Shown here piece after piece: positions 2,557 through 59,914 of a stretch of 64,000 nt of DNA. Both the position numbers and the translations under genes were made by a program. Position 1 is the stretch's first letter. Each line of letters starts with the position of its first letter. The notes below the pieces were generated by a model, which made no database searches, was not told the origin of the DNA, and saw only the letters and a program-made list of their open reading frames with translations. The DNA is from an uncultured Candidatus Saccharibacteria bacterium (GTDB taxonomy: Bacteria; Patescibacteriota; Minisyncoccia; Phycocordibacterales; Phycocordibacteraceae), in the NCBI GenBank assembly GCA_964434255.1, contig CAYSUL010000001.1, positions 104,856 through 168,855 on the forward strand, given 5' to 3'.

Positions 2557-2946
2557 CTATGCTTCGAACGTGACCTGGAAGCTGTACATCCCCATGGCGC
2601 AGACCCCTTGCAGCGTGCTGCCTATCTTCTGCGGAGGCACCGTGACTTCGGTAACGCCGCTCGGCTCCATGGTCGTGCTATAGCCGAGACTCGGGATGCG
2701 GATGGCGGCCGAACAATCGTAGGTGCCGCTCGTCTTCACCCGAAGCACGGTGGGAACATCCGCTCGGGCGGTGCTCAGCTTGGGCGCATAGCCCCCCTTC
2801 GCATCGATCTCGATGACCTGCGTCTCCCCTTCCATGCGGACGTTAGCTGCTTGAGCTACGGGCTCGCCTTTGCTGGCGAACATCACGGCCCCACCGATAA
2901 CGAAGGCTGCGATGAGTATGGACGCCATAAGCGGAAGCTGCTTCAT
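2557..2946 (-). CDS. Membrane-anchored cupredoxin-like domain protein
   Basis: N-terminal TM helix followed by a beta-rich 100-aa domain typical of cupredoxin-like proteins encoded next to Cu-ATPases. It is the last gene of the csoR-copA operon. Confidence 0.5.
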   Translation of the reverse strand: MKQLPLMASILIAAFVIGGAVMFASKGEPVAQAANVRMEGETQVIEIDAKGGYAPKLSTARADVPTVLRVKTSGTYDCSAAIRIPSLGYSTTMEPSGVTEVTVPPQKIGSTLQGVCAMGMYSFQVTFEA

Positions 2947-2958
2947 ATGCCGATTGTA

Positions 2959-3975
2959 CTAGAAACTGATAAGCGGTGGAATGAGCCCTGCAGCCACCAG
3001 GCTATTCATGAGATTGAAGAGCCCGAAGAATATCACCACGAGCCCCGCCGTCTTATAGAACACGCCGGTCTGCATCTTCTTGAGGCTAAGCGCGCCGAAC
3101 GAGAGGAACGCGAGCACCGGAAGCGTGCCGAGCGCGAAGATGGTCATGGTGAGCGCTCCGGTAAGGAAGCTTCCCGTGGTGAGCGTATAGAGCTGCATCG
3201 ACTGCGTGAACCCGCAGGGCAGGAAGAAGGTCGCTGCACCGATGAGGAACGGCATGAAGGCATTGTTCACGCTCTTCAGGGCTCCTATCCGCTTGGCGAA
3301 CGCGCTCGGGAGCGCAAGCTGGAACTTCTTGGTGGCCGGCAGCACATCGAGCAGGTTGATGCCGAGGATGAGAAGGACGACCGCAACGATGAGGCCGAGC
3401 ACGAATGTGCCCGTCCCGCCGAGCACGAAGAACGAGCCGAGCGCTCCGATGGCCCCGCCGAGCACGAAGAACGAGACGAGGCGGCCGATATGGAATAGCA
3501 CCTGCGGCCCTGTGCCCTTCCCCTCCTTGGCATACGTCGCTGACATCGAGAGCACGAGGCCGCCCACGACCGCCATGCAGGTGGAGACCGAGGCGATGAG
3601 GCCGATCACGAACGCGGTCGTATACGTCATGTCTCCCGTCCCGGCGAGGTTCACGATGCCGAGCTTCTGCAGCACGATGAACAGGGCGATGAAGACGGCC
3701 GCAGCAGGAACGGCATAGGTGAAGTCCGCCCAGCGCACCTGATGCTTCTTCCGTTCCAGACTCACCGTGTATCCGTGCCTTGCGAGCGGTTCGGTCAGGT
3801 ATGCCGCAATCTCTAGAGGCGTGCGGTCGCCGAACTCCCCAGCGACGTCGACCGTATGGGTAGCGAGCGACGACTCCGCATGCGTGACCTCCGGCAGGTC
3901 CATGAGCTCTCCCTCGGTGAGGGCGATGCATGCCTTGCAGTGCATGCCGTGGACGTGAAAGGTATAGGTTTCCAT
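2959..3975 (-). CDS. HMA (heavy-metal-associated) domain fused to DsbD_2/CcdA-like polytopic membrane domain
   Basis: N-terminal GMHCKAC metal-binding motif. The C-terminal part has 6-8 TM helices with conserved membrane cysteines (STCMAVVGG and FFLPCGF). Its start is 3 nt from the copA stop. Confidence 0.6.
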   Translation of the reverse strand: METYTFHVHGMHCKACIALTEGELMDLPEVTHAESSLATHTVDVAGEFGDRTPLEIAAYLTEPLARHGYTVSLERKKHQVRWADFTYAVPAAAVFIALFIVLQKLGIVNLAGTGDMTYTTAFVIGLIASVSTCMAVVGGLVLSMSATYAKEGKGTGPQVLFHIGRLVSFFVLGGAIGALGSFFVLGGTGTFVLGLIVAVVLLILGINLLDVLPATKKFQLALPSAFAKRIGALKSVNNAFMPFLIGAATFFLPCGFTQSMQLYTLTTGSFLTGALTMTIFALGTLPVLAFLSFGALSLKKMQTGVFYKTAGLVVIFFGLFNLMNSLVAAGLIPPLISF

Positions 3976-3977
3976 AG

Positions 3978-6272
3978 CTAGAGCGTAACGGCCTTTAATC
4001 GAAGCGAATTGAGCACCACCGACACGCTCGAGAGCGCCATCGCGAGCCCCGCGATGACCGGGGACAAGAGTATCCCGAAGAACGGAAACAGGATGCCGGC
4101 AGCGATAGGAATACCGACGAGGTTGTAGAAGAATGCCCAGAACAGGTTCTGCTTGATGCCGCGCATCGTGAGGCGCGAGAGCTTTATGGCCTTCACAAGC
4201 TTCCCGATATCGCCTCCAAGGAGCGTGATCCCGGCCGTTTCTATCGCAACGTCCGTGCCCGTGCCCCTGGCCCTGCCTACAGCCGCTTGCGCGAGCGCCG
4301 GGGCATCGTTGCCGCCATCGCCCGCCATGGCCACGACATCCCCCTTCGCCTGGGTCCCCCGTAACGCTTCGAGCTTCACGTCGGTCCGGACTTCGGCCCC
4401 CGCCCCCTCCAGTCCCAACTCTCGGGCGAAAGCCGCTGCCGTTTGTTTATTATCGCCGGTAAGCATGACTATCGTGATGCCCATATGGTGCAGCGCCGCC
4501 ACTGCCGCTACGGACTCGGGCTTTATCGCGTCTGCGACGAGCACCAGAGCGATTATCTCTTTTTTGGTCGCGAGAACGATCGGCGTCCGTCCTTTAGCCG
4601 TATGCATCGCGAGCGAGTCCGTATCGAGCGGAAGCTTGAGATCACCGATGAGCTTCGTATTGCCCGCGAAGTATTCCGTTCCCTCCACGAGAGCTCGGAC
4701 CCCCTTCCCTTGGATGACTTCGAACCGCTCCGTCCGCACGGGCTCGACCGAGCGCTCGTGCGCATACGCGAGGACAGCCGTTGCGACCGGGTGCTCGGAC
4801 TTCTGCTCAAGCGAGGCGAGTATCCGTAGCACGTCCGTCTCGGTATGGTTCCCGTACGCCTCCACCACGACCACTTCGGGCTTTCCCTTCGTGATCGTGC
4901 CGGTCTTATCGACAACGATAGTATCCACCTCCTGGAGCTTCTGGAGCGTCGCGGCGTCCTTGATGAGGATGCCCTCCTGCGCTCCCTTGCCCACGCCCAC
5001 GATAACGGCGATAGGCGTCGCGAGCCCGAGCGCGCACGGGCACGCAATGACGAGGATGCCGACGAAGGACGTAAGGCCGAGCGAGAGCGCTGCAGCGAAC
5101 CCGAGCGCGGGTATGCCAAGGACAAGCCATGCCGCAAGTACGAGCACCGCGAATACGAGCACGATCGGGACGAAGACGCTCGAGAGCTTGTCGGCGAGCC
5201 CCTGTATAGGCGCCTTGCTGCCCTGCGCTTCGCCTACCATCCGTATGATGCTTGCAAGCAGGGTTTCAGAACCGACCTTCGTCGCCTTGAATATGAAATG
5301 GCCGTTCGTGTTTAGCGTGCCTGCCACGACGGTATCTCCCGGGTTTTTCTCCGCCGGCATCGGCTCGCCCGTGACCATGGACTCGTCTACGTACGAACTT
5401 CCTTCGGTGAGCACGCCGTCGACCGGAATCTTCCCGCCGGGCCGCACGACGACGAGGTCGCCATGCGTCACCTGGTCTACTGGAACGGACACCTCCTTCC
5501 CGTCCCGCATCAGGAATGCGGTCTTCGCCTGGAGGTTGAGCAGTTTCTCGATGGCGTCGCCGGTCTTGAGCTTCGAACGGGCTTCGAGGTATTTGCCGAG
5601 CGCGATGAATGCGATCACGACGATCGTGACGTCGTAGTAGGTTTGGTCGACGTTCAGCAGGCCTCGGAGCGGCTCCTCGAAGGCTGTAAGGATGAAGCTG
5701 TAGAGGAACGCGACCGAGGTGCCGATGCCGATGAGCGTATCCATGTTCGCCTTGCCGTAGCGGACGAAGCGGTAGAAGCCGAGCAGATAGGGCTTCCCTA
5801 CCACCACCATGGTGTAGGTCGCGAAGATAGGCAGGAGATGGTGGAAGAACTCGTACCAGATCAGAGGCATGGCAGCGAGCACACCGAACTCTCCCAGCAT
5901 CTCCCAACCCATGACGAAGACGCTGAACGCAGCGAGCGGCAGCACCGAGAGCACCTTCCATTGCATATCCTTAATCTCTTCGAGCTTCTCCGCCTTCGAT
6001 TGAGTGATGCCGGTGTGCGCGGCATGCTCGTCAGGGGACATATTCATGCTTTCGGCGGTAGGCACGACGAGCGAGTAGCCGAGGGGTTGTATCTGTTTGG
6101 AAAGCTCGTGGGGGTCCGTCTTCGACTCGTCGAACGCAATCTTCGCCGTTTCGGTGCCGTAACTGACTTCGACGTGCTCCACGCCCGCCACCTTCTTGAC
6201 CGCTCGCTCGATGATGCTCGCGCAGGAGGCGCAGTGCATTCCCTTGATCCGGTAGGTCTTATGGTCGCTCAT
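3978..6272 (-). CDS. copA: Copper-translocating P1B-type ATPase
   Basis: N-terminal HMA (GMHCASCA), the membrane CPC motif ([12 protein letters not shown]), DKTGTIT phosphorylation site and the [10 protein letters not shown] hinge. Total length 764 aa. Confidence 0.92.
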
Positions 6273-22120: not shown

Positions 22121-22197
22121 TGGTGCCGACGGCAGGGAACGATCCTGCGACCTTAGCTTTATGAGTGCTACGCTCTAACCAACTGAGCTACGTCGGC
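22121..22197 (-). tRNA. tRNA with CAU anticodon (elongator Met or Ile2/lysidine type), atypical A54/U58 T-loop
   Basis: Cloverleaf with acceptor GCCGACG/CGTCGGC, anticodon loop CUCAUAA and T-arm GCAGG-ATCGTTC-CCTGC. CCA is encoded. No initiator features (G1-C72). Confidence 0.7.
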
Positions 22198-22876
22198 AAT
22201 TCTCGATTTGAGCAATGCGCTCTATATAGGCCAATATCTTGTCTCTAATATCTGTACCCTTTGAGACACGCAATGCCAGAACACCATAATACACATCGCG
22301 GTTCTCGTAAATCTTTTTCCCTCTATCTAGGAAGGTGGTGCGTCGGAATTGACTAATCGGAATATCGAGAGCCTTGCTCCAAAACCGTAGAATGTCTGTC
22401 TCGCGGTCGCGATGCGTGTCGCTTATGAATATCCGTGGCATGAAACGAGACTTCTCCACCTCGAGACATTCCATGAACCAACGACTCATGAGTTGAATGA
22501 CCCGTGGGTCTGAATTTATCAGAGCGAGCGACCCAGAGTTCGATTTAACGCCCTCTCCCCAGTACAAGCCTATCCCGATTAGGAACAGCTCCCTATCCGT
22601 AAGATCAGGCAGAATGTTGATAGCTTCTTCCTGCGCGACTTTCAGACGATTCGATCGCTTCATTCTATTCATCTCAGCCCCAATCATCCGTCCGCGATGG
22701 CCTGCCACTATCTGTTTCGCATGAAGTACCTCCTTTTGCTCCGGTGTTAACTCGATATCTCGAAGCCACAAACTGACCGTGCTGGGAGCGATTTTTATCG
22801 CCCGGCCTATTTCCTTAACGCTCATCCCTTTCCGCCTCAGTTCGATAGCCCTTCGTTTCTCCTCTGGTTTAGCCAT
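22175..22876 (-). CDS. HTH domain protein with LAGLIDADG-like (GLYWGEG) motif; putative free-standing homing endonuclease (paralog of 59121..59795)
   Basis: N-terminal HTH (MSVKEIGRAIKIAPSTVSLWL) followed by FLIGIGLYWGEGVKS, resembling the LAGLIDADG block (cf. GLWIGDG). Low local GC. Its 3' end overlaps the first 23 nt of the downstream tRNA. Confidence 0.45.
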   Translation of the reverse strand: MAKPEEKRRAIELRRKGMSVKEIGRAIKIAPSTVSLWLRDIELTPEQKEVLHAKQIVAGHRGRMIGAEMNRMKRSNRLKVAQEEAINILPDLTDRELFLIGIGLYWGEGVKSNSGSLALINSDPRVIQLMSRWFMECLEVEKSRFMPRIFISDTHRDRETDILRFWSKALDIPISQFRRTTFLDRGKKIYENRDVYYGVLALRVSKGTDIRDKILAYIERIAQIENCRRSSVG

Positions 22877-23031
22877 ATGTATCGCTATCATTTTCCTGCA
22901 GGCCTCATCATCATTTCCTGGAATTTATATAAAGGAAATCTGGAATAGTAATCGTCTCGCTATGCCCACCACACCTCTTTCCTTCGTCCCATTCGCGAAG
23001 CTCCCTGTTACAATCCACTCAACATAGCCGC

Positions 23032-26013: not shown

Positions 26014-27237
26014 TTAGTGCCCATGCCCCGGAACGATGACGCCATCGTATATTTCCTTATTCTCTTCCCCCGATACCGTAAGGACTCCCCACGCTCCCTT
26101 CTCCATGCGTGCGAGCGCATGATCGACTAACACATAGTTCCCTGGAACCTGCGTATCGAACTCCACGACCGAGGCGCCGCCCGCAGGAACGATGGTCGTT
26201 TGAACATCGGTATGCGGAATGGAAGTCAATGATGCTTCTGGGAACACCCGATCGAATACTTCTCCGATGACGTGGAAGGACGATACGAGGTTCACGCCGC
26301 CGTTGCCGAAGTAAATGCGCGTGGTTTCGCCAGTGTTCGCCTGCATACGATCCGAGAGCCCGCCGATTTTGCCGTTGAAGACGACGTACGTAGGGTTGCC
26401 ATCAAGCATCGCCTTGGCGTCGAAGAGCTGGAGGCCCTTTCGACCCATGCCCCCGGTCGCATAGTATTCTCCCTGCATTACGTAATATTCGTTATCTACG
26501 GGCGCCAATCCTTCTTCCGGCTCTACGAGGATCAAGCCGTACATGCCATGCGTCATGTGGTTCGCGACGTTCGGCGTCGCGCAATGGTAGACGAACAGTC
26601 CGGGATGAAGCGCCTTGAAGGTGACGGTGGCTGATTCCCCCGGCGCGACCATAGTGGACACTGCTCCACCACCAGGACCCGTGACCGCATGCAAGTCGAT
26701 ATTGTGGTGGTGCAAGCTGGTCGGATCGTTATGGAGCGTAAGCTCGACCGTGTCGCCCTCGCGAACGCGGAGCATCGGTCCCGGGATCTTCCCATCAAAG
26801 GTCCAGTAGTTAACGAATACCCCTGGCGCCATCTCAGCGATGACTTCTTTTGCGGTTAGTTCTACTTTCACGCGTTCGGATACCGTCCGCTCGATTGGTG
26901 GCGGGACTTCGTTCGGGTCGCGAGCGATATCATCCACACGTTCGATCTCATCGAAATGAGTGAGCAATCCCCACACATTCGACAGCGGGAGTACCGGCCC
27001 TTCTGCCGGCCCGTACGTAATGAGAGAAAGTGGGTACTCGAGATTCCGCGGCAACCCATTGGGTACATAGAACACGATCGAAACGGCGAGGAACACGACG
27101 ACGAGCGCAATGCGCATCGAATACCACCGTAGGTGCCGCAACGAGAGATAGATGAAGATGCCAGCGAAGATGAAGGCGATGAACAATCCAGCAGCTTGGA
27201 CGAAGTACGACCAGGTGTACGAGAGCAATTGCAGCAT
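26014..27237 (-). CDS. nirK: Copper-containing nitrite reductase (NirK-type multicopper oxidase) with N-terminal membrane anchor
   Basis: Type-1/type-2 Cu ligand motifs (HNIDLHAVTG, YHCATPNVANHMTHGMYG, SFHVIGE). Two N-terminal TM helices. Confidence 0.7.
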   Translation of the reverse strand: MLQLLSYTWSYFVQAAGLFIAFIFAGIFIYLSLRHLRWYSMRIALVVVFLAVSIVFYVPNGLPRNLEYPLSLITYGPAEGPVLPLSNVWGLLTHFDEIERVDDIARDPNEVPPPIERTVSERVKVELTAKEVIAEMAPGVFVNYWTFDGKIPGPMLRVREGDTVELTLHNDPTSLHHHNIDLHAVTGPGGGAVSTMVAPGESATVTFKALHPGLFVYHCATPNVANHMTHGMYGLILVEPEEGLAPVDNEYYVMQGEYYATGGMGRKGLQLFDAKAMLDGNPTYVVFNGKIGGLSDRMQANTGETTRIYFGNGGVNLVSSFHVIGEVFDRVFPEASLTSIPHTDVQTTIVPAGGASVVEFDTQVPGNYVLVDHALARMEKGAWGVLTVSGEENKEIYDGVIVPGHGH

Positions 27238-27246
27238 AAATAGGAT

Positions 27247-27600
27247 TTAGAAAGGGATTTTACATTCGTCGAAGCAATGCGCGCTCCGGTTAAGGCGATA
27301 GACCCGCTCGCGCCCCTGGTCGGTGCTCTCGACGGCATCGACGGAACGCAACGCATTGAGGTGATGGGTCACGGTCGGCTGGGCAAGCTTAAGTTTTTTG
27401 GTAAGCGCCGAGACGGTCATTCCATTCGCTTCCTTCCCCAGGAGGCACACGAGCGTATACCGGCTCTTCGAACCGACCACCTTAAAGCAGTCCGGGCAAA
27501 GCTCCTCTTCCGAGGTAACCGATTTCTTAACCCATGCAGGCCTCTTATACGTGCGCTCGCTTGCCGGCTTCTTCGTTGTCCCCACCTTTTTTTGATTCAT
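27247..27600 (-). CDS. ArsR/SmtB-family metal-sensing transcriptional regulator
   Basis: wHTH (VSALTKKLKLAQPTVTHHLNAL) plus N- and C-terminal Cys clusters (CPDC, CFDEC). Confidence 0.6.
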   Translation of the reverse strand: MNQKKVGTTKKPASERTYKRPAWVKKSVTSEEELCPDCFKVVGSKSRYTLVCLLGKEANGMTVSALTKKLKLAQPTVTHHLNALRSVDAVESTDQGRERVYRLNRSAHCFDECKIPF

Positions 27601-27664
27601 AGATGACCATCTATTGATACACTGATAAACCCATAGACGCTTATCAATATATCACCTTACTTTT

Positions 27665-29947
27665 ATGCCACGAACGAAATCCACATACCCCGCCTCGATC
27701 ATCAAGCGAGATGGGTCGAGCGCCCCATTCGAGCTTGAAAAGATTGCCCGTGCTATCGCGAAAGCGCTTGCGGCAGCGAGCGAAGGATCGAGCGAGGAAT
27801 CGATAACCGTCGCACGATCGGTCGCGGCTTCACTCCAAGGCGCGCTCGAACAAGGCGCGCGAACGGTGCCTTCGGTGGAGCAGGTGCAGGATATAGTCGA
27901 GGCGGAACTCATGAAGGCCGGGTACGTCGCGACCGCCAAGGCGTACATCCTGTATCGCGAGCATCACGCGAAGCTGCGCAAGGAAGCGTCCGACGTATCG
28001 CCCGCCATCCGCGCCGTCGTTTCCAAGAGTAAGGAATACTTCCCCAACCAGCTCTCCGAATTCGTCTACTACAGCACGTATTCCAGATGGCTCGACGACC
28101 AGGGCCGGCGCGAAGCCTGGGTCGAGACGGTCGACCGCTATATATCATTCATGCGGGAGAACCTGGGCGACAGGCTTACGCAGGACGAGTATCAGGAAGT
28201 ACGCGAGTACATGCTCGCTATGAAGGCGATGGGATCGATGCGGCTCCTGTGGAGCGCCGGCGCGCCGGCCCGGACATCGAATGTCTGCGTCTACAACTGC
28301 TCGTTCATAGCGCCCGCATGCTGGCAGGATTTCGCCGAAATAATGTACATCTCCATGTGCGGAACAGGCGTCGGCTTCTCGGTGGAGCGCCAGACCGTCG
28401 AGGCGCTTCCGGTAATCGAACAGCAGACCGGCGCTACCCTTCCCCAATACGTGATCGAAGATAGCAAGGAGGGCTGGGCGGATGCGCTTGCGTACGGCAT
28501 GGACGCCTGGGCGTCTGGCTCGGACGTTTCCTTCGATTACGGCCATATCCGCCCGCGAGGAGCGCGCCTCAAGACCATGGGTGGACGGGCCTCGGGACCG
28601 GAACCCTTGAAGAATCTCCTTGAGTTCGCGCGCGAGCGCATGCTGGAGCACCAAGGACGCCATCTCTCCACGCTCGATGTGCACGACCTGGTCTGCAAGA
28701 TCGGCGAGATCGTAGTGGCTGGAGGCGTGCGCCGAAGCGCTCTCATCTCCCTCTCCGACCTCGATGATATAGAGATGCGCGAGGCGAAGAACGGCCAGTT
28801 CTACCTGACGAATCCGCAGCGCGCTATGGCGAATAACTCCGCGGTCTATAACGAGAAGCCGACGGCAATCGAATTCATGGAGGAGTGGCTCAACCTGGCG
28901 AAGAGCGGGTCCGGCGAGCGCGGCATCTTCAATCGCGGAAGCCTTGAGAAGCAGCTGCCCGCACGCAGGTGGCCGCTCTTCGCGAAGGACCTCGCCCGAA
29001 GCGGCACGAACCCGTGCGGCGAGATCATCCTCAAGTCCAAACAATTCTGCAACCTGAGCGAAGTCGTGGTGCGCCCTGAGGATACGCTCGAGACCCTGGC
29101 TGCGAAGGTGCGTATCGCGACCATCCTTGGCACCTATCAAGCATCGCTCACTGATTTCCCGTACCTTTCGCCCGAATGGAAGAAGAATTGCGAAGAGGAG
29201 GCATTGCTCGGGGTGTCCATGACCGGGCAATGGGACAATGCGGCCGTACGCGATCCTGGCGTCCAACGCGCTCTCAAGGAAGTGGCCCTCGAGACGAACC
29301 AAATCTATGCGAAGCGCTTCGGCATCAATCCTTCCACGGCGATCACGGCAGTGAAGCCGTCCGGCAACGGCTCGCAGCTCTTCGATTGCGCATCCGGCAT
29401 GCACCCGCGGCATTCTAAATACTACCTGCGGCGCGTGCGCATCGAGGGACACAATCCGCTCAAGCGGCTCCTTGAGGACGCGGGCGTCCCTTGCGTGCCT
29501 GAAGTCGGGCAAACGAAGGATACCGCCACGACGTGGGTGCTCGAGTTCCCGGTGAAAGCGCCGGAAGACGCTGCCGTTAAGGGCGATCACACCGCGCTCG
29601 ATCAGCTTGAGTATTGGAAGATGGTGAAGGAGGAGTATTGCGAGCACAACCCTTCAGTGACCGTCACCATAGCCGCCGATGAATGGTTCGCGGTCGGCGA
29701 GTGGGTCTATGCGCATTGGGACATCGTCGGCGGGCTGTCGTTCCTGCCCAAAAGCGAGCATGTCTACCAACTCGCGCCGTACGAGGAGATAAGCAAGGAG
29801 CGGTACCTTGAGCTCGCCTCCGTCTTCCCCGCTATCGACTTCGCCCAACTGGTCCGCTACGAAACGGAGGACGCCACTACCGGAGCGAAGGAGCTTGCCT
29901 GCGTATCGGGCACCTGCGAGATCGACGTGCCTGCCCCGACTAACTGA
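27665..29947 (+). CDS. nrdJ: Ribonucleotide reductase with N-terminal ATP-cone; class II (adenosylcobalamin-dependent) NrdJ-like
   Basis: ATP-cone (VIKRDGSSAPFELEKI). The active-site loop TNPCGEII is typical of class II (class I has NLCSEI-type). No nrdB gene is nearby. Confidence 0.7.
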   Translation: MPRTKSTYPASIIKRDGSSAPFELEKIARAIAKALAAASEGSSEESITVARSVAASLQGALEQGARTVPSVEQVQDIVEAELMKAGYVATAKAYILYREHHAKLRKEASDVSPAIRAVVSKSKEYFPNQLSEFVYYSTYSRWLDDQGRREAWVETVDRYISFMRENLGDRLTQDEYQEVREYMLAMKAMGSMRLLWSAGAPARTSNVCVYNCSFIAPACWQDFAEIMYISMCGTGVGFSVERQTVEALPVIEQQTGATLPQYVIEDSKEGWADALAYGMDAWASGSDVSFDYGHIRPRGARLKTMGGRASGPEPLKNLLEFARERMLEHQGRHLSTLDVHDLVCKIGEIVVAGGVRRSALISLSDLDDIEMREAKNGQFYLTNPQRAMANNSAVYNEKPTAIEFMEEWLNLAKSGSGERGIFNRGSLEKQLPARRWPLFAKDLARSGTNPCGEIILKSKQFCNLSEVVVRPEDTLETLAAKVRIATILGTYQASLTDFPYLSPEWKKNCEEEALLGVSMTGQWDNAAVRDPGVQRALKEVALETNQIYAKRFGINPSTAITAVKPSGNGSQLFDCASGMHPRHSKYYLRRVRIEGHNPLKRLLEDAGVPCVPEVGQTKDTATTWVLEFPVKAPEDAAVKGDHTALDQLEYWKMVKEEYCEHNPSVTVTIAADEWFAVGEWVYAHWDIVGGLSFLPKSEHVYQLAPYEEISKERYLELASVFPAIDFAQLVRYETEDATTGAKELACVSGTCEIDVPAPTN

Positions 29948-29955
29948 AAACGCCT

Positions 29956-30498
29956 ATGAATATCTCCCTCTCGATGACCGCACGTATCGCTCTATTCTGC
30001 GCGCTCCTGGCGCTCGGCATAGGTTCGCGCTTCATTCCGCATCCGCCGGACATGACGGCATTGACCGCGGTCATATTCGCGGGCGCGCTGTATCTCGGGC
30101 CGCGGATGTCGCTCGTGCTCGCACTGTCCCTTCTCCTGGTGTCCGACGCGCTCATTGGTAGTTACGAACTGCCGGTGATGCTCTCCGTCTACGGCACCTT
30201 CCTCCTGATCGCGGGAGCTGGAATCCTTTTCGCGCGTTCAGGAAGCGTCGGCAACAAGGCTCTCGCGCTTGCGGGTGCCTCGCTACTGTTCTTCCTCGTC
30301 ACGAATGCCGCTGTGTGGTATTTCACGCCCTGGTACCCGAAGGATATCGGAGGGCTCATGGCCTCGTACACGCTTGGCCTTCCCTTCCTTAAGAACATGC
30401 TTATCGGCGACTTCATCTATACGCCGGCGCTGCTCGCTGCGCTCGCGCTCGTACTGAAGCCGTACCCGGCGCCGGCGCACTCTACGTATGCGGCATAG
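29956..30498 (+). CDS. Small polytopic membrane protein (possible ECF-type S-component / vitamin capture protein)
   Basis: 180 aa with 5-6 TM helices. Sits between nrdJ and the DUF4430/transcobalamin-like genes. Confidence 0.35.
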   Translation: MNISLSMTARIALFCALLALGIGSRFIPHPPDMTALTAVIFAGALYLGPRMSLVLALSLLLVSDALIGSYELPVMLSVYGTFLLIAGAGILFARSGSVGNKALALAGASLLFFLVTNAAVWYFTPWYPKDIGGLMASYTLGLPFLKNMLIGDFIYTPALLAALALVLKPYPAPAHSTYAA

Positions 30499-30925
30499 AA
30501 CGCTCATGGTCGGCAGCGTCGCGCTTGCAGCAGGGATAGCCGGCACTCTGCTAGCCCTTGAGGCTAGCGGGCCTTATCCTCCTACGCAGCCGCACGGAGC
30601 GGACGGGCATATGCATGCGGCGCCCCCGCATACGGACTCGCCTGCAGGAAAGATTCGCGATGCGGTCCCTGACCGTTCCTACGTTTTTGTCGCGGAGGCT
30701 ACAGGAACCGTAGAGACCCTCATGCAGGAAAAGCGGGCGGACGGTTCTCTCGCCTTCACAAGCAAGGAGTACCCAACGCTTGGTTCGTTCCTTGAATCAG
30801 TGAACGGAGTACGGAACGAGAACGGCGAATATTGGATGCTGCATATTAATGGAACGCGCTCTTCCGTCGGGATGTCGAGTGCTCCGGTAGTCCCTGGCGA
30901 CCGTATCGAATGGCGCTATGAATAG
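30488..30925 (+). CDS. DUF4430 domain protein (transcobalamin beta-domain-like; B12-uptake associated)
   Basis: N-terminal TM/signal segment. C-terminal pattern YWMLHINGTRSSVGMSSAPVVPGDRIEWRY matches the DUF4430 signature. Confidence 0.55.
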   Translation: MRHRTLMVGSVALAAGIAGTLLALEASGPYPPTQPHGADGHMHAAPPHTDSPAGKIRDAVPDRSYVFVAEATGTVETLMQEKRADGSLAFTSKEYPTLGSFLESVNGVRNENGEYWMLHINGTRSSVGMSSAPVVPGDRIEWRYE

Positions 30926-32870
30926 ATTCCTCTTCATCGCTCTCGCGGCCGTTCTTTCCGTAAGCGCTCCGCTCGGAGTGCGTGCCGACGAGATTGCCAC
31001 GACCTCGCCTGGAACGATCACGGATCCCATTGAAATTCCGGTCGAGCCGATCGTCGAGAGCACCACCTCGGCCGAGCCTATGATGGAGAGCGGTACCTCG
31101 ACCGAACCAATTGATGCGCCTGCGCCAGCGATCTCGATTCGGCTCAGCATCGAGAGCCACAGCGAAACGCTCTTCGATGGACCGCTGACCGTGACCGCGT
31201 GCCCGCGTTCCCCGGGCGACGCGACGGAGTCCATCAGCGGATACTGCGCCCTCGAGCAATCGGGCGTTGCCACGCGATGGTCCTGGTACGGGAATGACGC
31301 GTTCATCGACTCGATCGGAGGGGTGGCGAACGACCATGCCGCAAGCGCGTACTGGAACTGGTTCTCGGATCTTTCCTTCGGAGCGACTGCGCTTAACGCG
31401 CACGAGCTTCACGAGGGTGAATCACTACTCCTTACGATTGAACGATTCCCGCTGCGCGTGTCCCTCTCGCCGGACACGCTCGTCGCGAATAGCACGACAA
31501 CTGTGTCCGTGCTGCAGTTCGGATTCGATACGAGCTTCAACCCTGTATGGGAGCCTGCACCAGGAAGCATCGTCCTCATAAACGAAGAGTCGCATCAGGC
31601 CGATGTCGCAGGAACATTCGCCTACGTCCCTCCTGTAGCTGGAGAACTCACGATCGCCGCGACCAAGGAAGGGTACCTGTCAGCAGGCCCCGTCACGACG
31701 CACGTCGAGAATGCAGCCCTTCCCGCGCCAGACACGGACAATGGTAGCGGAAGCACCGCACCTCCTCAGCCTGAGGAGGATCCGGTCGCTAGCGCCCTTG
31801 AGTTCCTCCTTCATTATCAGCGGACGGACGGCTCCTTCCCGAATCCCCTGCTCACGGATTGGGCTGCGATAGCGCTCAAGAGCACGGGCGCCCCCACGAA
31901 GTCGCTGAAGAAGTACCTGACTGCGGCGTCCGACCCCTTGGAGACCGCGACAGATTTCGAACGAAGGGCGATGGCGCTTATGTCGCTTGGTATCGATCCG
32001 CAGGAGATGATCGAGGAAATAACCGATCGCTTCGATGGCACGCAGATCGGCGACCCCTCGCTCGTGAATGACGATATCTTCGGGCTCATAGCGCTCTCTC
32101 ACGCCGGGTACACCGACGCTGATGAGATCACGAAGGAAGTCACGTCCTTCGTCCTTGGCAGGCAGAAATCGAACGGCTCATGGGAAAGCGCTGACCTTAC
32201 CGCAGCAGCGATACAGGCGCTCGCTCCCCTCGATGCTCTCCCGGGCGTATCTAGCGCGGTATCGAAAGCGCGGGACTATCTCGCCTCAAACCAGCGACAG
32301 GACGGCTGCTTCGGCAACAGCTTCACGACCAGCTGGGGTATCATGGCTATCGTTGCGCTCGGCGACTCTCCTGACGGATGGCGTTCGGCTAGCGGGATAT
32401 CGCCGCTTGCGTGCCTGCGATCGCTCCAGGCTGCTGATGGTGGATTCGAGGAGGGAGCGGACGGAAATACACGAGCATGGGCGACCGCATACGCGATACC
32501 CGCCCTTGAAGAAGATACCTGGAACAAGCTGCTCGGCCAGTATCAAAGATCCATACCCCCAAAGGTCGAAGACGATGAGGCTCACCTCGTCGCGGCACTC
32601 CCCTTGGAATCAGAGCGCGCGACGACCACGGTCGAGGTATTTCCAGAAGCTCCTCTCCCCATGCTACCGATAGCCGTAACGGAACCGGCTATCTCTCGGA
32701 CGAGCGAGCAGGTTGTGCCTGGACCTCCTGCGCGGACATTAGCCGCAGCGGCCGTACTCGCGCTTCCAGAAGCGGTACCTGAACGGAGCGCGAGCATATG
32801 GTCGTTCTTCGCTGACATCGCTGCATTCTTCCTGAGCGGGATATACAATCTTCTATCGAAGACAGACTAG
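30918..32870 (+). CDS. Large secreted/anchored protein: DUF4430-like domain + prenyltransferase/terpene-cyclase-like alpha6/alpha6 repeats (transcobalamin-like architecture)
   Basis: Signal peptide and a DUF4430-like segment (YWNWFSDLSFGATALNAHELHEGESLLL). Four Q-x-x-DG-(F/W) repeats follow (QRTDGSF, QKSNGSW, QRQDGCF, AADGGF). A hydrophobic segment lies near the C-terminus (IWSFFADIAAFFLSGIYNLL, 20 aa before the end). Confidence 0.5.
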   Translation: MNRFLFIALAAVLSVSAPLGVRADEIATTSPGTITDPIEIPVEPIVESTTSAEPMMESGTSTEPIDAPAPAISIRLSIESHSETLFDGPLTVTACPRSPGDATESISGYCALEQSGVATRWSWYGNDAFIDSIGGVANDHAASAYWNWFSDLSFGATALNAHELHEGESLLLTIERFPLRVSLSPDTLVANSTTTVSVLQFGFDTSFNPVWEPAPGSIVLINEESHQADVAGTFAYVPPVAGELTIAATKEGYLSAGPVTTHVENAALPAPDTDNGSGSTAPPQPEEDPVASALEFLLHYQRTDGSFPNPLLTDWAAIALKSTGAPTKSLKKYLTAASDPLETATDFERRAMALMSLGIDPQEMIEEITDRFDGTQIGDPSLVNDDIFGLIALSHAGYTDADEITKEVTSFVLGRQKSNGSWESADLTAAAIQALAPLDALPGVSSAVSKARDYLASNQRQDGCFGNSFTTSWGIMAIVALGDSPDGWRSASGISPLACLRSLQAADGGFEEGADGNTRAWATAYAIPALEEDTWNKLLGQYQRSIPPKVEDDEAHLVAALPLESERATTTVEVFPEAPLPMLPIAVTEPAISRTSEQVVPGPPARTLAAAAVLALPEAVPERSASIWSFFADIAAFFLSGIYNLLSKTD

Positions 32871-32995
32871 CCGACCGGGCGTGATGCAGATGCGCCGCCG
32901 CTAGACTGTTGGATCTCTGGGTGGAAAAGCGAAAGCCCGACTTTCGTCGGGCTTTCGCTTGCTTATTGCACTGGTAGGACAGGATTGGCACCAGA

Positions 32996-33952
32996 TCAAC
33001 CTTTGGGTACAGGCATGCTTCTAACTGAACGTCGAGGATCCTTCTTCGAGAACACGCTATTGATGGGCGTTTTCAGGAACGGAACACCCGTCTCCCTATC
33101 GAGAGTAATCTCCCCCGCACGCATATTCACCTGAAGCGAGGGAATTATGAGGCGCGGTACGCCAAGCGTCGTATCCCGCTGTATGCGAAGCGTAGTAAAT
33201 TCCTCAATGCTCGTGCGTGCGTTCAAATGCACATTGGTGCGCTTCTGTTCTCCGACCGTCGTCTCGTACCGGTATTCGGAACGACCTTCAGGAAGGTAAT
33301 CATGGCACATGAACATTCGCATTTCTTCAGGGAGCATGAAGAGCTTCTGGGCTGATGCATGCATATCCTTTGCACTCCCACCCGGAAAATCAACACGTGC
33401 AGTTCCATAGTCCGGCATGAAGAGGGTGTCCCCCGGAAATACCGCATCCCCTATCACATAGGTGACGTCTGCGGGTGTGTGGCCCGGGGTATAGAGTACC
33501 CGTACCGGGATATTCCCTATCGAAAACGTATCGTCTTCCTTGAACAATCGATCGAACTGGCTTCCGTCGCGTTGGAATTCCGTGCCTTCATTGAACACCT
33601 TGCCGAACACCTCCTGAACTTCGAGAATTCGTTCACCGATAGCCATCTTCCCGCCCAGCCGCTCCTTTAGGTACGGTGCCGCCGAGAGGTGATCCGCGTG
33701 TACATGTGTCTCAAGAATCCAGTCGACCGCATATCCGTGTTCTTCAACATAGCGGATGATACTGTCTGCACTCTCATACGAAATGGTTGCGCTATGCGGC
33801 TCGTAATCAAGCACACTATCGATAATGGCGCATCGCTTGGTCTCTCTGTCCGCGACCACGTAGCTCACGGTATTGGTCGCGTGGTCGAAGAATCCCTTGA
33901 CGGAGGGAGGATGGTTGAGGAACGATTCATAGCGATGCATAGGCAGATTCAA
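32996..33952 (-). CDS. MBL-fold metallo-hydrolase (persulfide dioxygenase-like)
   Basis: HxHxDH motif (ETHVHADHL) with downstream His/Asp ligands. Confidence 0.65.
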   Translation of the reverse strand: MNLPMHRYESFLNHPPSVKGFFDHATNTVSYVVADRETKRCAIIDSVLDYEPHSATISYESADSIIRYVEEHGYAVDWILETHVHADHLSAAPYLKERLGGKMAIGERILEVQEVFGKVFNEGTEFQRDGSQFDRLFKEDDTFSIGNIPVRVLYTPGHTPADVTYVIGDAVFPGDTLFMPDYGTARVDFPGGSAKDMHASAQKLFMLPEEMRMFMCHDYLPEGRSEYRYETTVGEQKRTNVHLNARTSIEEFTTLRIQRDTTLGVPRLIIPSLQVNMRAGEITLDRETGVPFLKTPINSVFSKKDPRRSVRSMPVPKG

Positions 33953-34477
33953 TTAGTCCTTATTCCAGGGCATACGCATAAGCAGCATGCTCATCCCGCA
34001 CCAGCCAGTGAGCCCGGCAAAAAGGAGCCCTGCCCCCACTACGGCAGAGAGAGCAAGCCACAGCGGCGAAGCGAGCAGGGCGAACACGTGCGCGAGGATA
34101 ACAAGCGCGCCAGCGACCAAGAGTGTCTGCCGCATGAGCGAAAGTCGTGAAGAAATCCGTTCCGTTCCGTACCCCGCCTGTTCCCAGGCGAGCAGGCCGC
34201 CCTCCACATTCACCAGCTCGGCCTGTATCCCGAGCGCAGAGAGCTTCTCTATCGCAGTACTGCCCCTACGCCCCGAACGGCAGTGCACGTAGATGGTCTT
34301 CTTATCCTTGAACTCGGCTATATGACGCTCCAACTCATCAAGCGGTACTGAACGTACCCCGCTTATATGCTTCTCCTTATACTCCTCAGGCGTACAGACA
34401 TTGATAAAATCGACCGACGGATTGTTCTTCTCTACATCTACGACCTCTTTGAATGACGATACGGAAATATGCTTCAT
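33953..34477 (-). CDS. Rhodanese-domain sulfurtransferase with C-terminal membrane anchor (YgaP-like)
   Basis: Active-site loop YVHCRSGRRG and two C-terminal TM helices. Confidence 0.7.
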   Translation of the reverse strand: MKHISVSSFKEVVDVEKNNPSVDFINVCTPEEYKEKHISGVRSVPLDELERHIAEFKDKKTIYVHCRSGRRGSTAIEKLSALGIQAELVNVEGGLLAWEQAGYGTERISSRLSLMRQTLLVAGALVILAHVFALLASPLWLALSAVVGAGLLFAGLTGWCGMSMLLMRMPWNKD

Positions 34478-34481
34478 ACGA

Positions 34482-34742
34482 TTAGGTAGTTAGAGTAATG
34501 ACGGCTCGTGCAAGGTTCGTATAGTCGCGAGAGGCGGTCTTGTAATAGACGTGGCGGCCGCTCGTGCGCGTGCGCACAACTCCTGTCTTACGCAGCACCG
34601 CGAGGTGCTGCGAGAGAGCGCTCTGGCTCAGATCGCATTTCTCGAGGAGGCCGGTCACCGTGCTCTCGCGTGCAAGGCACGCTACGAGCCGTACCCGCTC
34701 CGGGTTCCCGAACGCGCTACATAGTTCCCTTAACTTCATCAA
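34482..34742 (-). CDS. ArsR-family transcriptional regulator (sulfur/persulfide-responsive candidate)
   Basis: wHTH (SQSALSQHLAVLRKTGVV) and a Cys pair. Heads the rhodanese-MBL operon. Confidence 0.65.
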   Translation of the reverse strand: MMKLRELCSAFGNPERVRLVACLARESTVTGLLEKCDLSQSALSQHLAVLRKTGVVRTRTSGRHVYYKTASRDYTNLARAVITLTT

Positions 34743-59034: not shown

Positions 59035-59108
59035 TGCGCCCGGCAGGGCACGATCCTGCGACCCCCCGGATATAAGCCGGGTGCTCTGACCAACTGAGCT
59101 ACGGGCGC
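59035..59108 (-). tRNA. tRNA-Ile (anticodon UAU), atypical A54/U58 T-loop
   Basis: Acceptor GCGCCCG/CGGGCGC, anticodon stem CCCGG/CCGGG with loop CUUAUAU. The D-arm and T-arm (GCAGG-ATCGTGC-CCTGC) are nearly identical to the CAU tRNA at 22121..22197. Confidence 0.65.
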
Positions 59109-59120
59109 TCCATCATGGAA

Positions 59121-59795
59121 TCACGGAGGTAAGTTCCGTGCAAATGTATCGCGAATACTTTCGAGGCATGCGTGCACATATTCGGATACATCGCGATTCC
59201 CATAGAGGATATTGCAGGTTCCATGAGTGAACCGTTGCGTGTAGGTAAGTCCGCTTCGGCTCGATGACTTGATGTATGGTTTTCGGAAAGCCGTTCTCGG
59301 CAGATCTAGTACCTCTGACCAATAATTCAATTCGGCTTCCGCATCCATGTCCTGATAAAGATGTATGCACACCTTCAATTTCTCTCTCGGCACGCCGAAC
59401 ATTTCCAGCCATTTGATAAAGAAGATCAATACCGCGGGATCCGTGTTCGATATAGCAGTAAGAGTATTCTGAGTCTTACTCCCTTCACCCCAATATAGAA
59501 ACAGGCCCGCTATGAACATTTCACGTTCGGACAGTGTAGAGACATCTTTCGCTGCGCGTTCATAGACTCCCTCAAGTCGTGTGCGTTTCTTCAGCGCCTT
59601 CGTCTCTCGACACTTCTCAATCCTGCGCTCACTCCATCCACGCAGCTCGTTGATTCGCTCTCGAGAAAGCGGATAGTCCTGCAACCAGATACTTAGTGTC
59701 CCCTTACTTACACCAAGCGCCGCTTTTATCTGGCTGTAGCTCATCTGCTGCATCCGCATTTCAAGCGCTCGCGCCTTTAATTCTCGTTTAGCCAT
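59121..59795 (-). CDS. HTH domain protein with LAGLIDADG-like (GLFLYWGEG) motif; putative homing endonuclease (paralog of 22175..22876)
   Basis: Collinear similarity to the 22175..22876 product (MAKxE..., LSIWLQD, FIAGLFLYWGEGSK, ISNTDP, WSEVLDLP). Low GC. Located 13 nt upstream of tRNA-Ile(UAU). Confidence 0.45.
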   Translation of the reverse strand: MAKRELKARALEMRMQQMSYSQIKAALGVSKGTLSIWLQDYPLSRERINELRGWSERRIEKCRETKALKKRTRLEGVYERAAKDVSTLSEREMFIAGLFLYWGEGSKTQNTLTAISNTDPAVLIFFIKWLEMFGVPREKLKVCIHLYQDMDAEAELNYWSEVLDLPRTAFRKPYIKSSSRSGLTYTQRFTHGTCNILYGNRDVSEYVHACLESIRDTFARNLPP

Positions 59796-59914
59796 AGTAC
59801 TTAGGAGTAGTGCACACAAAGTACTAACTCCTAGTTCAAATATTCCTGGAGAAATAATAGGGGAAAGCTGAAAACCGCCGAGACATATGTCTCGGCGGTT
59901 TTCATGTGAGTTAC

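Follow-up and report, generated by a model that had tools for sequence, protein, structure and literature searches.

The 64,000-nt window analyzed here (positions 104,856 to 168,855 of contig CAYSUL010000001.1, assembly GCA_964434255.1, from an uncultured Candidatus Saccharibacteria bacterium) carries at 27665-32870 a four-gene operon that probably encodes a module for the capture and uptake of corrinoids (B12), co-transcribed with an enzyme that requires the cofactor. The genes encode a class II ribonucleotide reductase (RNR), NrdJ; a small membrane protein of the family DUF6580 (PF20221); a small tethered protein with a DUF4430 domain; and a large secreted protein in which a DUF4430-like domain is combined with an alpha/alpha toroid. 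We propose the DUF6580 protein as the corrinoid translocator and the 650-aa toroid protein as an extracellular corrinoid trap, and the operon as a whole is the Patescibacterial counterpart of the Lactobacillus nrdJ-cbrS-cbrT-pduO cluster. Homologies, folds, operon structure, conserved linkage, riboswitch control in other lineages and a gene fusion form the basis of this reading, with the gene context in other genomes carrying most of the weight. B12 scavenging had been suggested in a preliminary description of the region, and that suggestion gains support from the relationship of the membrane protein to CbrT, the neighborhood linkage, four riboswitches, the DUF6580-toroid fusion and the Lactobacillus locus.

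In the window's list of open reading frames (ORFs), the four genes lie head-to-tail on the forward strand, just where the preliminary description had placed them. The gap between nrdJ and the DUF6580 gene is 8 nt, overlaps of 11 nt and then 8 nt follow between the later genes, and the four form one operon (Table 1). NrdJ contains an N-terminal ATP-cone, RNR_Alpha, the insertion domain of B12-dependent RNRs (PF21995, E 5.2e-8) and the barrel PF02867, and its best PDB match is the ribonucleoside triphosphate reductase (RTPR) of L. leichmannii (1L1L, E 3.9e-40). The TNPCGE loop, from which a class II RNR had originally been called, is found at aa 448, and CVSGTC stands at the C-terminus; together with PF21995 and the 1L1L match, the loop bears out the original call. 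Among NCBIfam models TIGR02505 (RTPR; E 2.2e-81) fits best, with a score of 274 bits that lies below the 340-bit cut-off; close relatives also fall under it, the nrdJ product of locus L009 scoring 314 bits. These matches point to a monomeric, RTPR-like class II RNR dependent on adenosylcobalamin (AdoCbl), from a divergent clade with an added ATP-cone, and NrdJ presumably uses the B12 that is imported.

NCBIfam has no model for DUF6580, the family of the second protein, and our literature search returned no mention of it. The AlphaFold2 (AF2) model is an all-helical bundle typical of a protein with six transmembrane (TM) helices (predicted local distance difference test score, pLDDT, 88.5), in keeping with the five or six TM segments noted earlier. 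A search of the whole set of PDB sequences (E <= 10) with a profile built from 20 DUF6580 proteins gave a single match, 6FNP_A (E 1.1e-7); this 182-residue chain, annotated as a "membrane protein," is the S-component CbrT. Comparison of the DUF6580 alignment with the N-terminal halves of CbrT by hhalign gave 95.1% (E 3.4e-8), and two motifs are common to both families, R-x(2-4)-P-x-P-N-x-[TQ]-P in loop 1 and S-[DN]-x(2)-L-G-F in helix 3. Residues that do not vary within DUF6580 include R25, P28, H29, N32, S63, D64, Y79, T116, N117, W121 and Y127. Foldseek comparison of the model with the PDB yielded ECF (energy-coupling factor) or CbiM-type S-components as all 13 best matches, including 4huq_S, RibU, PanT, ThiT, FolT and CbiM/NikM-type proteins, at query-normalised TM-scores of 0.39-0.67. 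The profile match, the hhalign result and the fold sustain the earlier proposal of CbrT as a candidate relative, and DUF6580 is best described as a distant CbrT homologue with a predicted S-component fold. ECF-CbrT of Lactobacillus delbrueckii (PDB 6FNP) transports cobalamin and cobinamide (Santos et al. 2018, PMC5997447); according to the same authors, CbrT had been predicted by Rodionov et al. in 2009. BtuM of Thiobacillus denitrificans (PDB 6FFV), which transports B12 without an ECF module and ligates cobalt through its invariant Cys80 (PMC6072759), had been named as another possible relative. That comparison failed: no Cys is conserved among 119 DUF6580 sequences, the PDB profile search at E <= 10 returned no match to BtuM, and we rejected BtuM as an identity for the family.

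The genomic context of DUF6580 was surveyed with HMM and phmmer searches built from the window proteins. Scanning one genome per species revealed at least 568 DUF6580 loci; the best 80, those closest to the window protein, were analyzed for neighbors within 3 kb, so the sample is mainly Patescibacterial. A DUF4430 gene is found near DUF6580 in 70 of these 80 loci and a toroid protein in 27. The reductase is an RTPR-like nrdJ in 17 and a dimeric NrdJ_Z, above the TIGR02504 cut-off, in eight, while a cobalamin adenosyltransferase of the PduO type is present in 16 and one of the CobA/BtuR type in seven. B12-binding radical SAM genes occur in eight loci. Overall, at least one gene for a B12 enzyme (class II RNR or B12-radical-SAM) or a cobalamin adenosyltransferase was observed in 43/80 loci; by our own estimate, chance would place a single-copy gene of a ~1-Mb genome in about 2/80. 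Homologues of all four operon proteins come almost exclusively from metagenome bins of Patescibacteria (candidate phyla radiation, CPR), where some of the taxon labels produced by automated binning ("Saccharibacteria," "Gammaproteobacteria") are unreliable. The DUF4430-DUF6580 pair is also found beyond CPR, for example in Pirellulimonas nuda, and the DUF6580 family is present in Planctomycetes and Bacteroidota. Complete genomes with a DUF6580 gene include OY970216.1 and that of P. nuda (CP036291.1). At locus L021 (6493-9765), DUF6580 and the toroid are part of a single uninterrupted ORF of 1091 aa that reaches the contig end; if this ORF is no assembly artefact, the transporter is covalently linked to its surface trap. 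The same ORF also carries a peptidoglycan-binding domain and a bacterial Ig-like domain.

Control by cobalamin-sensing RNA provides a second link to B12. Among 36 loci scanned with Rfam, four have a cobalamin-class riboswitch directly upstream of the DUF6580 operon. The highest-scoring (RF00174, 96.7 bits) belongs to a Bacteroidota locus, L075, and precedes genes for a secreted protein with a type IX secretion system (T9SS) tail, DUF6580, a VWA protein and an AAA protein. Another RF00174 element (43 bits), at the Actinomycetes-labelled locus L077, stands before genes for a DUF4430 protein, a DUF4430-toroid protein and DUF6580; at L079, RF01482 precedes DUF4430 and DUF6580; and at L036, RF01689 (AdoCbl-II) precedes a toroid-DUF4430 protein, a 183-aa beta-rich/TM protein, DUF4430 and DUF6580. 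These riboswitch-controlled operons lack nrdJ. Conversely, Rfam found no riboswitch at the nrdJ-linked operons, either in the window or in eight nrdJ-linked relatives, a sensible arrangement because an essential reductase should escape shut-off by its own cofactor. In L075 (8329-13199) the secreted protein has 430 aa and, apart from its T9SS sorting tail, no other Pfam domain; the AAA protein is Mg-chelatase-like, and its pairing with VWA recalls chelatase or MoxR systems.

The Lactobacillus CbrT locus has the order nrdJ (RTPR-type)-DUF4430-DUF4430-cbrT-pduO. Because this matches the published nrdJ-cbrS-cbrT-pduO layout of L. delbrueckii, cbrS is most likely a DUF4430 gene, and the small DUF4430 protein of the window would be the counterpart of lactobacillal cbrS. 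A protein-database search with a 90-aa CbrT fragment, which led to this locus, returned mostly truncated or frameshifted entries. In L088-L090 (6001-6600, Lactobacillus), cbrT is called as 135 aa; the frame shifts near codon 135 and continues elsewhere, which reflects either a pseudogene of the lineage or a recurrent assembly error.

Two of the operon's proteins carry DUF4430 or DUF4430-like domains. The small protein consists of a TM or signal-anchor segment (aa 5-26), a proline-rich linker and a C-terminal DUF4430 domain, and it matches PF14478 at E 2.6e-12 and 47.5 bits, well over the 23.8-bit Pfam cut-off, in agreement with its earlier assignment. DUF4430, which has the SLBB fold, corresponds to the C-terminal or beta-domain of transcobalamin (TCN) proteins (PMC4350170; Burroughs, Balaji, Iyer and Aravind 2007, PMC1796856). 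The large protein has 235 homologues, nearly all from Patescibacteria. Its AF2 model, built from 55 of these homologues, begins with the signal sequence, which is N-terminal and hydrophobic, and continues with a disordered segment, a DUF4430-like domain, a beta-sandwich, the alpha/alpha toroid, a disordered linker of ~70 residues and a C-terminal helix. Against Pfam DUF4430 the N-terminal domain scores 18.4 bits (E 0.003, aa 125-173), under the cut-off; hhalign paired it with the small DUF4430 proteins at 96.7% (E 3.7e-10), and the beta-sandwich and toroid controls were negative, which substantiates the second DUF4430-like segment described earlier. The beta-sandwich gave CarboxypepD_reg matches in two of the 55 homologues, plus L077. 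The C-terminal helix is moderately hydrophobic (Kyte-Doolittle mean of 1.46 in the best 19-residue window, below the 1.6 threshold), and we take it as a probable membrane anchor.

The alpha6/alpha6 barrel recognized in the preliminary description reappears in the AF2 model as the alpha/alpha toroid. The four QxxDG(F/W) repeats reported with it are also present, with a motif that is one residue longer than given, Qxx[D/N]Gx[F/W], at aa 301, 416, 459 and 504. An N-D-D-I-F motif (aa 384-388) marks the start of an inner helix; across 55 toroid proteins D385, D386 and F388 never vary and N384 and I387 hardly ever do, and the motif could be a ligand-contacting element. W315, W473 and W521 are further invariant residues of the toroid. 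Foldseek placed the B12 carriers intrinsic factor (3kq4_A, E 3.5e-7; 2pmv_B, target-normalised TM-score 0.66), haptocorrin (4kki, E 1.7e-6) and transcobalamin (2bb6, 7qbg) among the top 50 matches of the large-protein model, and PF01122, the eukaryotic cobalamin-binding protein family, was matched by 41/55 relatives at E <= 0.01. Of the two transcobalamin domains named in the preliminary description, DUF4430 is recovered by Pfam and hhalign, and the toroid resembles intrinsic factor, transcobalamin and haptocorrin. Searches of PDB sequences with the family profile of the large protein matched terpene cyclases and alpha2-macroglobulin-like proteins and no B12 carrier at E <= 10; the transcobalamin link therefore rests on the fold, on PF01122 in the relatives and on context. 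Compared one by one with PDB sequences, the small and the large protein gave nothing useful; the signal came from profiles and structure models only. Group I introns (RF00028, 61-66 bits) occur near the module at two loci from Patescibacteria, in L006 (12953-13202, reverse strand), where the intron sits just past the large toroid gene, and in L027 (17641-17939, reverse strand).

What these proteins bind, how they pass it on and what drives the uptake we infer as follows. Animal transcobalamin, intrinsic factor and haptocorrin hold B12 between an alpha and a beta domain. The anchored 650-aa protein would likewise bind free extracellular cobalamin, with its toroid on one side and a DUF4430/SLBB beta-grasp domain on the other, the latter supplied either by its own N-terminus or by the small tethered DUF4430 protein. 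The small protein would then either join the trap or pass the ligand to the membrane. There, DUF6580 would bind the ligand at the membrane surface and import it through toppling, the movement typical of S-components. An adenosyltransferase encoded outside the 64 kb would make AdoCbl for NrdJ; alternatively, AdoCbl may be imported ready-made.

The same machinery might instead import another tetrapyrrole, such as heme or some corrinoid precursor in place of cobalamin itself, which we consider improbable. In L. sakei, the genes Lsa1836-1840 encode a transporter of the ECF type and, as separate proteins, counterparts of the alpha and beta domains of transcobalamin, and a preprint draws on docking and physiology to argue that this system takes up heme (10.1101/864751); CbrT moves cobinamide as well as cobalamin (PMC5997447), and Burroughs et al. 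left the ligand as "B12 or its precursors" (PMC1796856). Yet the genes linked to DUF6580 are cobalamin-specific, comprising two AdoCbl-dependent RNR classes, two corrinoid adenosyltransferase classes and B12-radical-SAM enzymes, and the four cobalamin/AdoCbl riboswitches argue against any other tetrapyrrole. No heme-related genes recur in the DUF6580 neighborhood clusters, and a cobinamide-only role requires salvage genes of the CobU/S/T type, none of which were seen in the loci. We give still less credence to the idea that the large protein is a surface enzyme like terpene cyclases or prenyltransferases, or a trap like the thioester-containing domain (TED) of alpha2-macroglobulin, unrelated to B12. 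In both sequence and structure, the toroid is matched best by squalene-hopene cyclase, drimenyl-diphosphate synthase and complement TED domains, and the invariant N-D-D (aa 384-386) recalls the DxDD of class II terpene cyclases; the window motif, however, reads V-N-D-D and lacks the first Asp. Moreover, the large protein is secreted and has a single toroid fused to a DUF4430 domain, whereas the cyclase type has two toroids and is cytoplasmic or membrane-associated. In L036 and L077 a toroid relative follows a cobalamin riboswitch, in L021 one is fused to DUF6580, and the PF01122 matches in most relatives also argue for cobalamin.

How uptake is energized is a more evenly balanced matter. There is nearly an even chance that DUF6580 is an ordinary group II ECF S-component served by a shared EcfA-EcfA'-EcfT module encoded elsewhere, a rival for the energy coupling only. 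The CbrT homology and S-component fold favor this, genes for group II S-components are typically unlinked to the module (PMC5997447), and SLBB genes have been found with CbiO/CbiQ genes in Gram-positive bacteria (Burroughs et al., PMC1796856). Against it, no ECF-type ATPase lies within 10 kb of DUF6580 in 83 loci. As a proxy for ECF, ABC ATPases of any kind numbered only five in these loci, none consistently adjacent and two with the length of fused exporters. The AxxxA docking motif in helix 1 of CbrT is not conserved in DUF6580, and the family extends to Planctomycetes and Bacteroidota. To our knowledge, these two phyla generally lack ECF modules. BtuM is a precedent for a solitary S-component-like B12 transporter (PMC6072759). 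The missing nearby ATPase, the unconserved AxxxA and the distribution of the family lead us to favor, by a small margin, a BtuM-like mode in which DUF6580 needs no ECF ATPase module.

Several observations weigh against B12 uptake by this operon, or against parts of the scheme. The similarity between CbrT and DUF6580 is limited to the N-terminal half, and Pfam assigns the window membrane protein to PF20221 only and not to PF12822, the family of CbrT, whose N-terminal fragment matches PF12822 and PF07155. The window toroid protein itself matches PF01122 at E 0.069 only, and its toroid resembles class II terpene cyclases no less than it resembles B12 carriers. By tblastn, the window has no PduO-type or CobA-type adenosyltransferase and no B12-radical-SAM protein. 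Nor does it have a cobalamin riboswitch (Rfam gathering threshold over 64 kb; E <= 10 over 26900-31000); the one that the preliminary description had proposed to look for upstream of 29956 was not found. No ECF module gene was recognized in the 64 kb (ORFs by eye and partial Pfam); because group II S-components are normally unlinked to their module, its absence from the loci says little in favor of a solitary mode.

Table 1. Features of the operon and its borders, in window positions
Feature	Position	Strand	Basis
ArsR-type regulator gene, divergent from nrdJ	27247-27600	-	
Divergent intergenic region, ArsR-type gene to nrdJ, 64 nt	27601..27664	.	sequence read directly
nrdJ, class II RNR, 760 aa	27665..29947	+	Pfam, TIGR02505, PDB 1L1L
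DUF6580 membrane protein, 180 aa	29956..30498	+	PF20221, E 6.5e-36
Small membrane-tethered DUF4430 protein, 145 aa	30488..30925	+	PF14478
Large secreted, anchored protein, 650 aa	30918..32870	+	AF2, pLDDT 82.5
DUF4430-like (SLBB) domain of the large protein, aa 72-175	31131..31442	+	Pfam and hhalign
Beta-sandwich (Ig/CarboxypepD_reg-like) spacer, aa 178-265	31449..31712	+	AF2, all-beta, pLDDT ~90-97
Alpha6/alpha6 toroid, aa 289-540	31782..32537	+	AF2 model
C-terminal helix (probable anchor), aa 627-649, IWSFFADIAAFFLSGIYNLL	32796..32864	+	AF2 helix
Perfect 13-bp GC-rich hairpin, then TTGCTTATT (T-rich)	32929..32958	.	found and folded

The intergenic region upstream of nrdJ, the presumed promoter/operator, contains an 8-bp inverted repeat, TATTGATA (27612-27619) and TATCAATA (27642-27649); a scan for the sigma-70 consensus found no site in it. 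Downstream, the hairpin (-28.5 kcal/mol including flanks) lies between the large gene and a convergent metallo-beta-lactamase gene and is probably a bidirectional terminator that ends the operon, although a simple terminator scan did not report it. Divergent from nrdJ, the reverse strand at 26014-27600 encodes a NirK-like multicopper oxidase (407 aa) and the 117-aa ArsR-type regulator. The pair also flanks nrdJ in relatives (10/80 loci), including L093/L094 (1-1393), two loci that share this flank and have the gene order nrdJ-pduO-DUF4430-DUF6580. On the other side, a small convergent operon (32996-34742, reverse strand) encodes a protein of the metallo-beta-lactamase fold, a rhodanese that ends in a membrane domain, and an ArsR-type helix-turn-helix (HTH) protein, and looks like a unit for the handling of sulfur (persulfide). 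This trio is also found behind the module in L001 and L003, contigs with an identical DUF6580 protein.

Farther away, a copper cluster (2557-6272, reverse strand) comprises genes for a 764-aa P-type ATPase that contains an HMA domain, a 338-aa HMA-DsbD_2 membrane protein and a small secreted beta protein; with the NirK-like oxidase, it suggests notable copper use for an organism with a small genome. Two paralogous HTH_23 (homeodomain-like) proteins of ~235 aa are encoded on the reverse strand at 22175-22891 and 59121-59819, each gene adjoining a tRNA gene (22124-22197 and 59035-59108, respectively). Pfam recognizes only their N-terminal HTH, and the two proteins may be left over from a mobile element or a homing endonuclease. 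The window also holds type IV pilus genes, gatCA, ligA, ftsH, recG and tmRNA, and its remaining gene content fits a CPR-type organism. No nrdB and no cobalamin-synthesis genes were recognizable in it (ORFs by eye; Pfam on 19). An obligate B12 dependence and an inability to make cobalamin are presumed for the organism from what is generally known of Patescibacteria, and not from the window sequence.

Patescibacteria make up a large share of bacterial diversity and are thought to make almost no cofactors. For one curated Parcubacterium genome, a requirement for external B12 was stated explicitly, without mention of a transporter (PMC5220378). The operon, together with the 70/80 loci that have its core, offers a concrete and testable route for this dependency, tied to the synthesis of DNA precursors. 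Bacterial transcobalamin-like scavengers had already been predicted in 2007 (PMC1796856), and CbrT was proven in 2018 (PMC5997447). What is new is the assignment of a putative role in B12 uptake to DUF6580, with strong comparative support; its apparent independence of linked ATPase genes; the spread of the system through Patescibacteria; and the connection of the toroid protein to B12 by way of the fusion and the riboswitches. The riboswitches, the fusion, and the two RNR and two adenosyltransferase types constitute the strongest comparative support yet for the 2007 prediction. If DUF6580 does work without an ATPase module, it would be the second solitary vitamin transporter of the S-component type. 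A bolder extension, which we hold to be doubtful, would make DUF6580 the third cobalamin transporter family after CbrT and BtuM, acting alone and fed by a two-protein surface "bacterial transcobalamin" (toroid plus tethered beta-domain) on which ultra-small Patescibacteria depend, their DNA precursors being made only with B12 from hosts or neighbors; single chains of the alpha-then-beta type seen in L036 could then be the prokaryotic stock of the animal B12 carriers.

Among the closest known systems is the nrdJ-cbrS-cbrT-pduO cluster of L. delbrueckii. Both begin with an RTPR-type nrdJ, followed by one or more DUF4430 genes and a gene for a six-helix protein with the S-component fold, and many relatives of the window operon keep a PduO adenosyltransferase in the operon as well. 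Unlike the CbrT cluster, the window places DUF6580 ahead of DUF4430, its membrane protein belongs to PF20221 rather than PF12822, it has the additional 650-aa toroid protein and no pduO, and no ECF module is in sight. BtuM resembles DUF6580 in being a small membrane protein of the S-component fold and sets the precedent for a solitary mode, but DUF6580 lacks a counterpart of Cys80, and BtuM partners the outer-membrane protein BtuB in proteobacteria.

With transcobalamin, intrinsic factor and haptocorrin (2BB5/2BB6, 2PMV, 4KKI), the large protein shares an extracytoplasmic location and the combination of a toroid with a DUF4430/SLBB beta-grasp domain, at 13-18% sequence identity. Transcobalamin is soluble and has its alpha domain before its beta domain, whereas the window protein, anchored to a bacterial membrane, runs beta, Ig-like, alpha and C-terminal helix, and a second beta-domain resides on a separate tethered protein. 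This reversed order is a further point against the B12 reading; the relative in L036, behind its AdoCbl-II riboswitch, keeps the order of transcobalamin. Burroughs et al. predicted that bacterial transcobalamin-like SLBB/toroid proteins scavenge B12 in non-producers, and they found the toroid fused on either side of SLBB, so that both domain orders exist in bacteria (PMC1796856). The window system shares with theirs the SLBB-toroid fusion, the Ig-domain insert, a paralogous SLBB gene in the operon and a signal peptide. Their systems are from Gram-positive bacteria and some archaea and are accompanied by CbiO/CbiQ-type (ECF) genes; unlike these and the L. sakei proteins Lsa1839/Lsa1840, the window system is from Patescibacteria, has DUF6580 as its partner and has no accompanying ATPase genes.

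An analogy can also be drawn with the BtuJ/BtuH/BtuG-BtuB relay of Bacteroides, in which several surface B12 binders feed a membrane transporter under riboswitch control (PMC13616437). It is an analogy only, as the folds of that relay are unrelated (beta-propeller, DUF4465) and it operates in a diderm with TonB dependence. One of these folds nevertheless recurs beside DUF6580. At the planctomycete-like locus L091/L092 (1-5558), a gene for a DUF4465 protein, a family for which B12 binding has been published (PMC13398666), lies ~290 nt upstream of DUF6580; the protein has >2000 aa, with a dockerin and planctomycete extracellular motifs, and Rfam found no riboswitch in L091.

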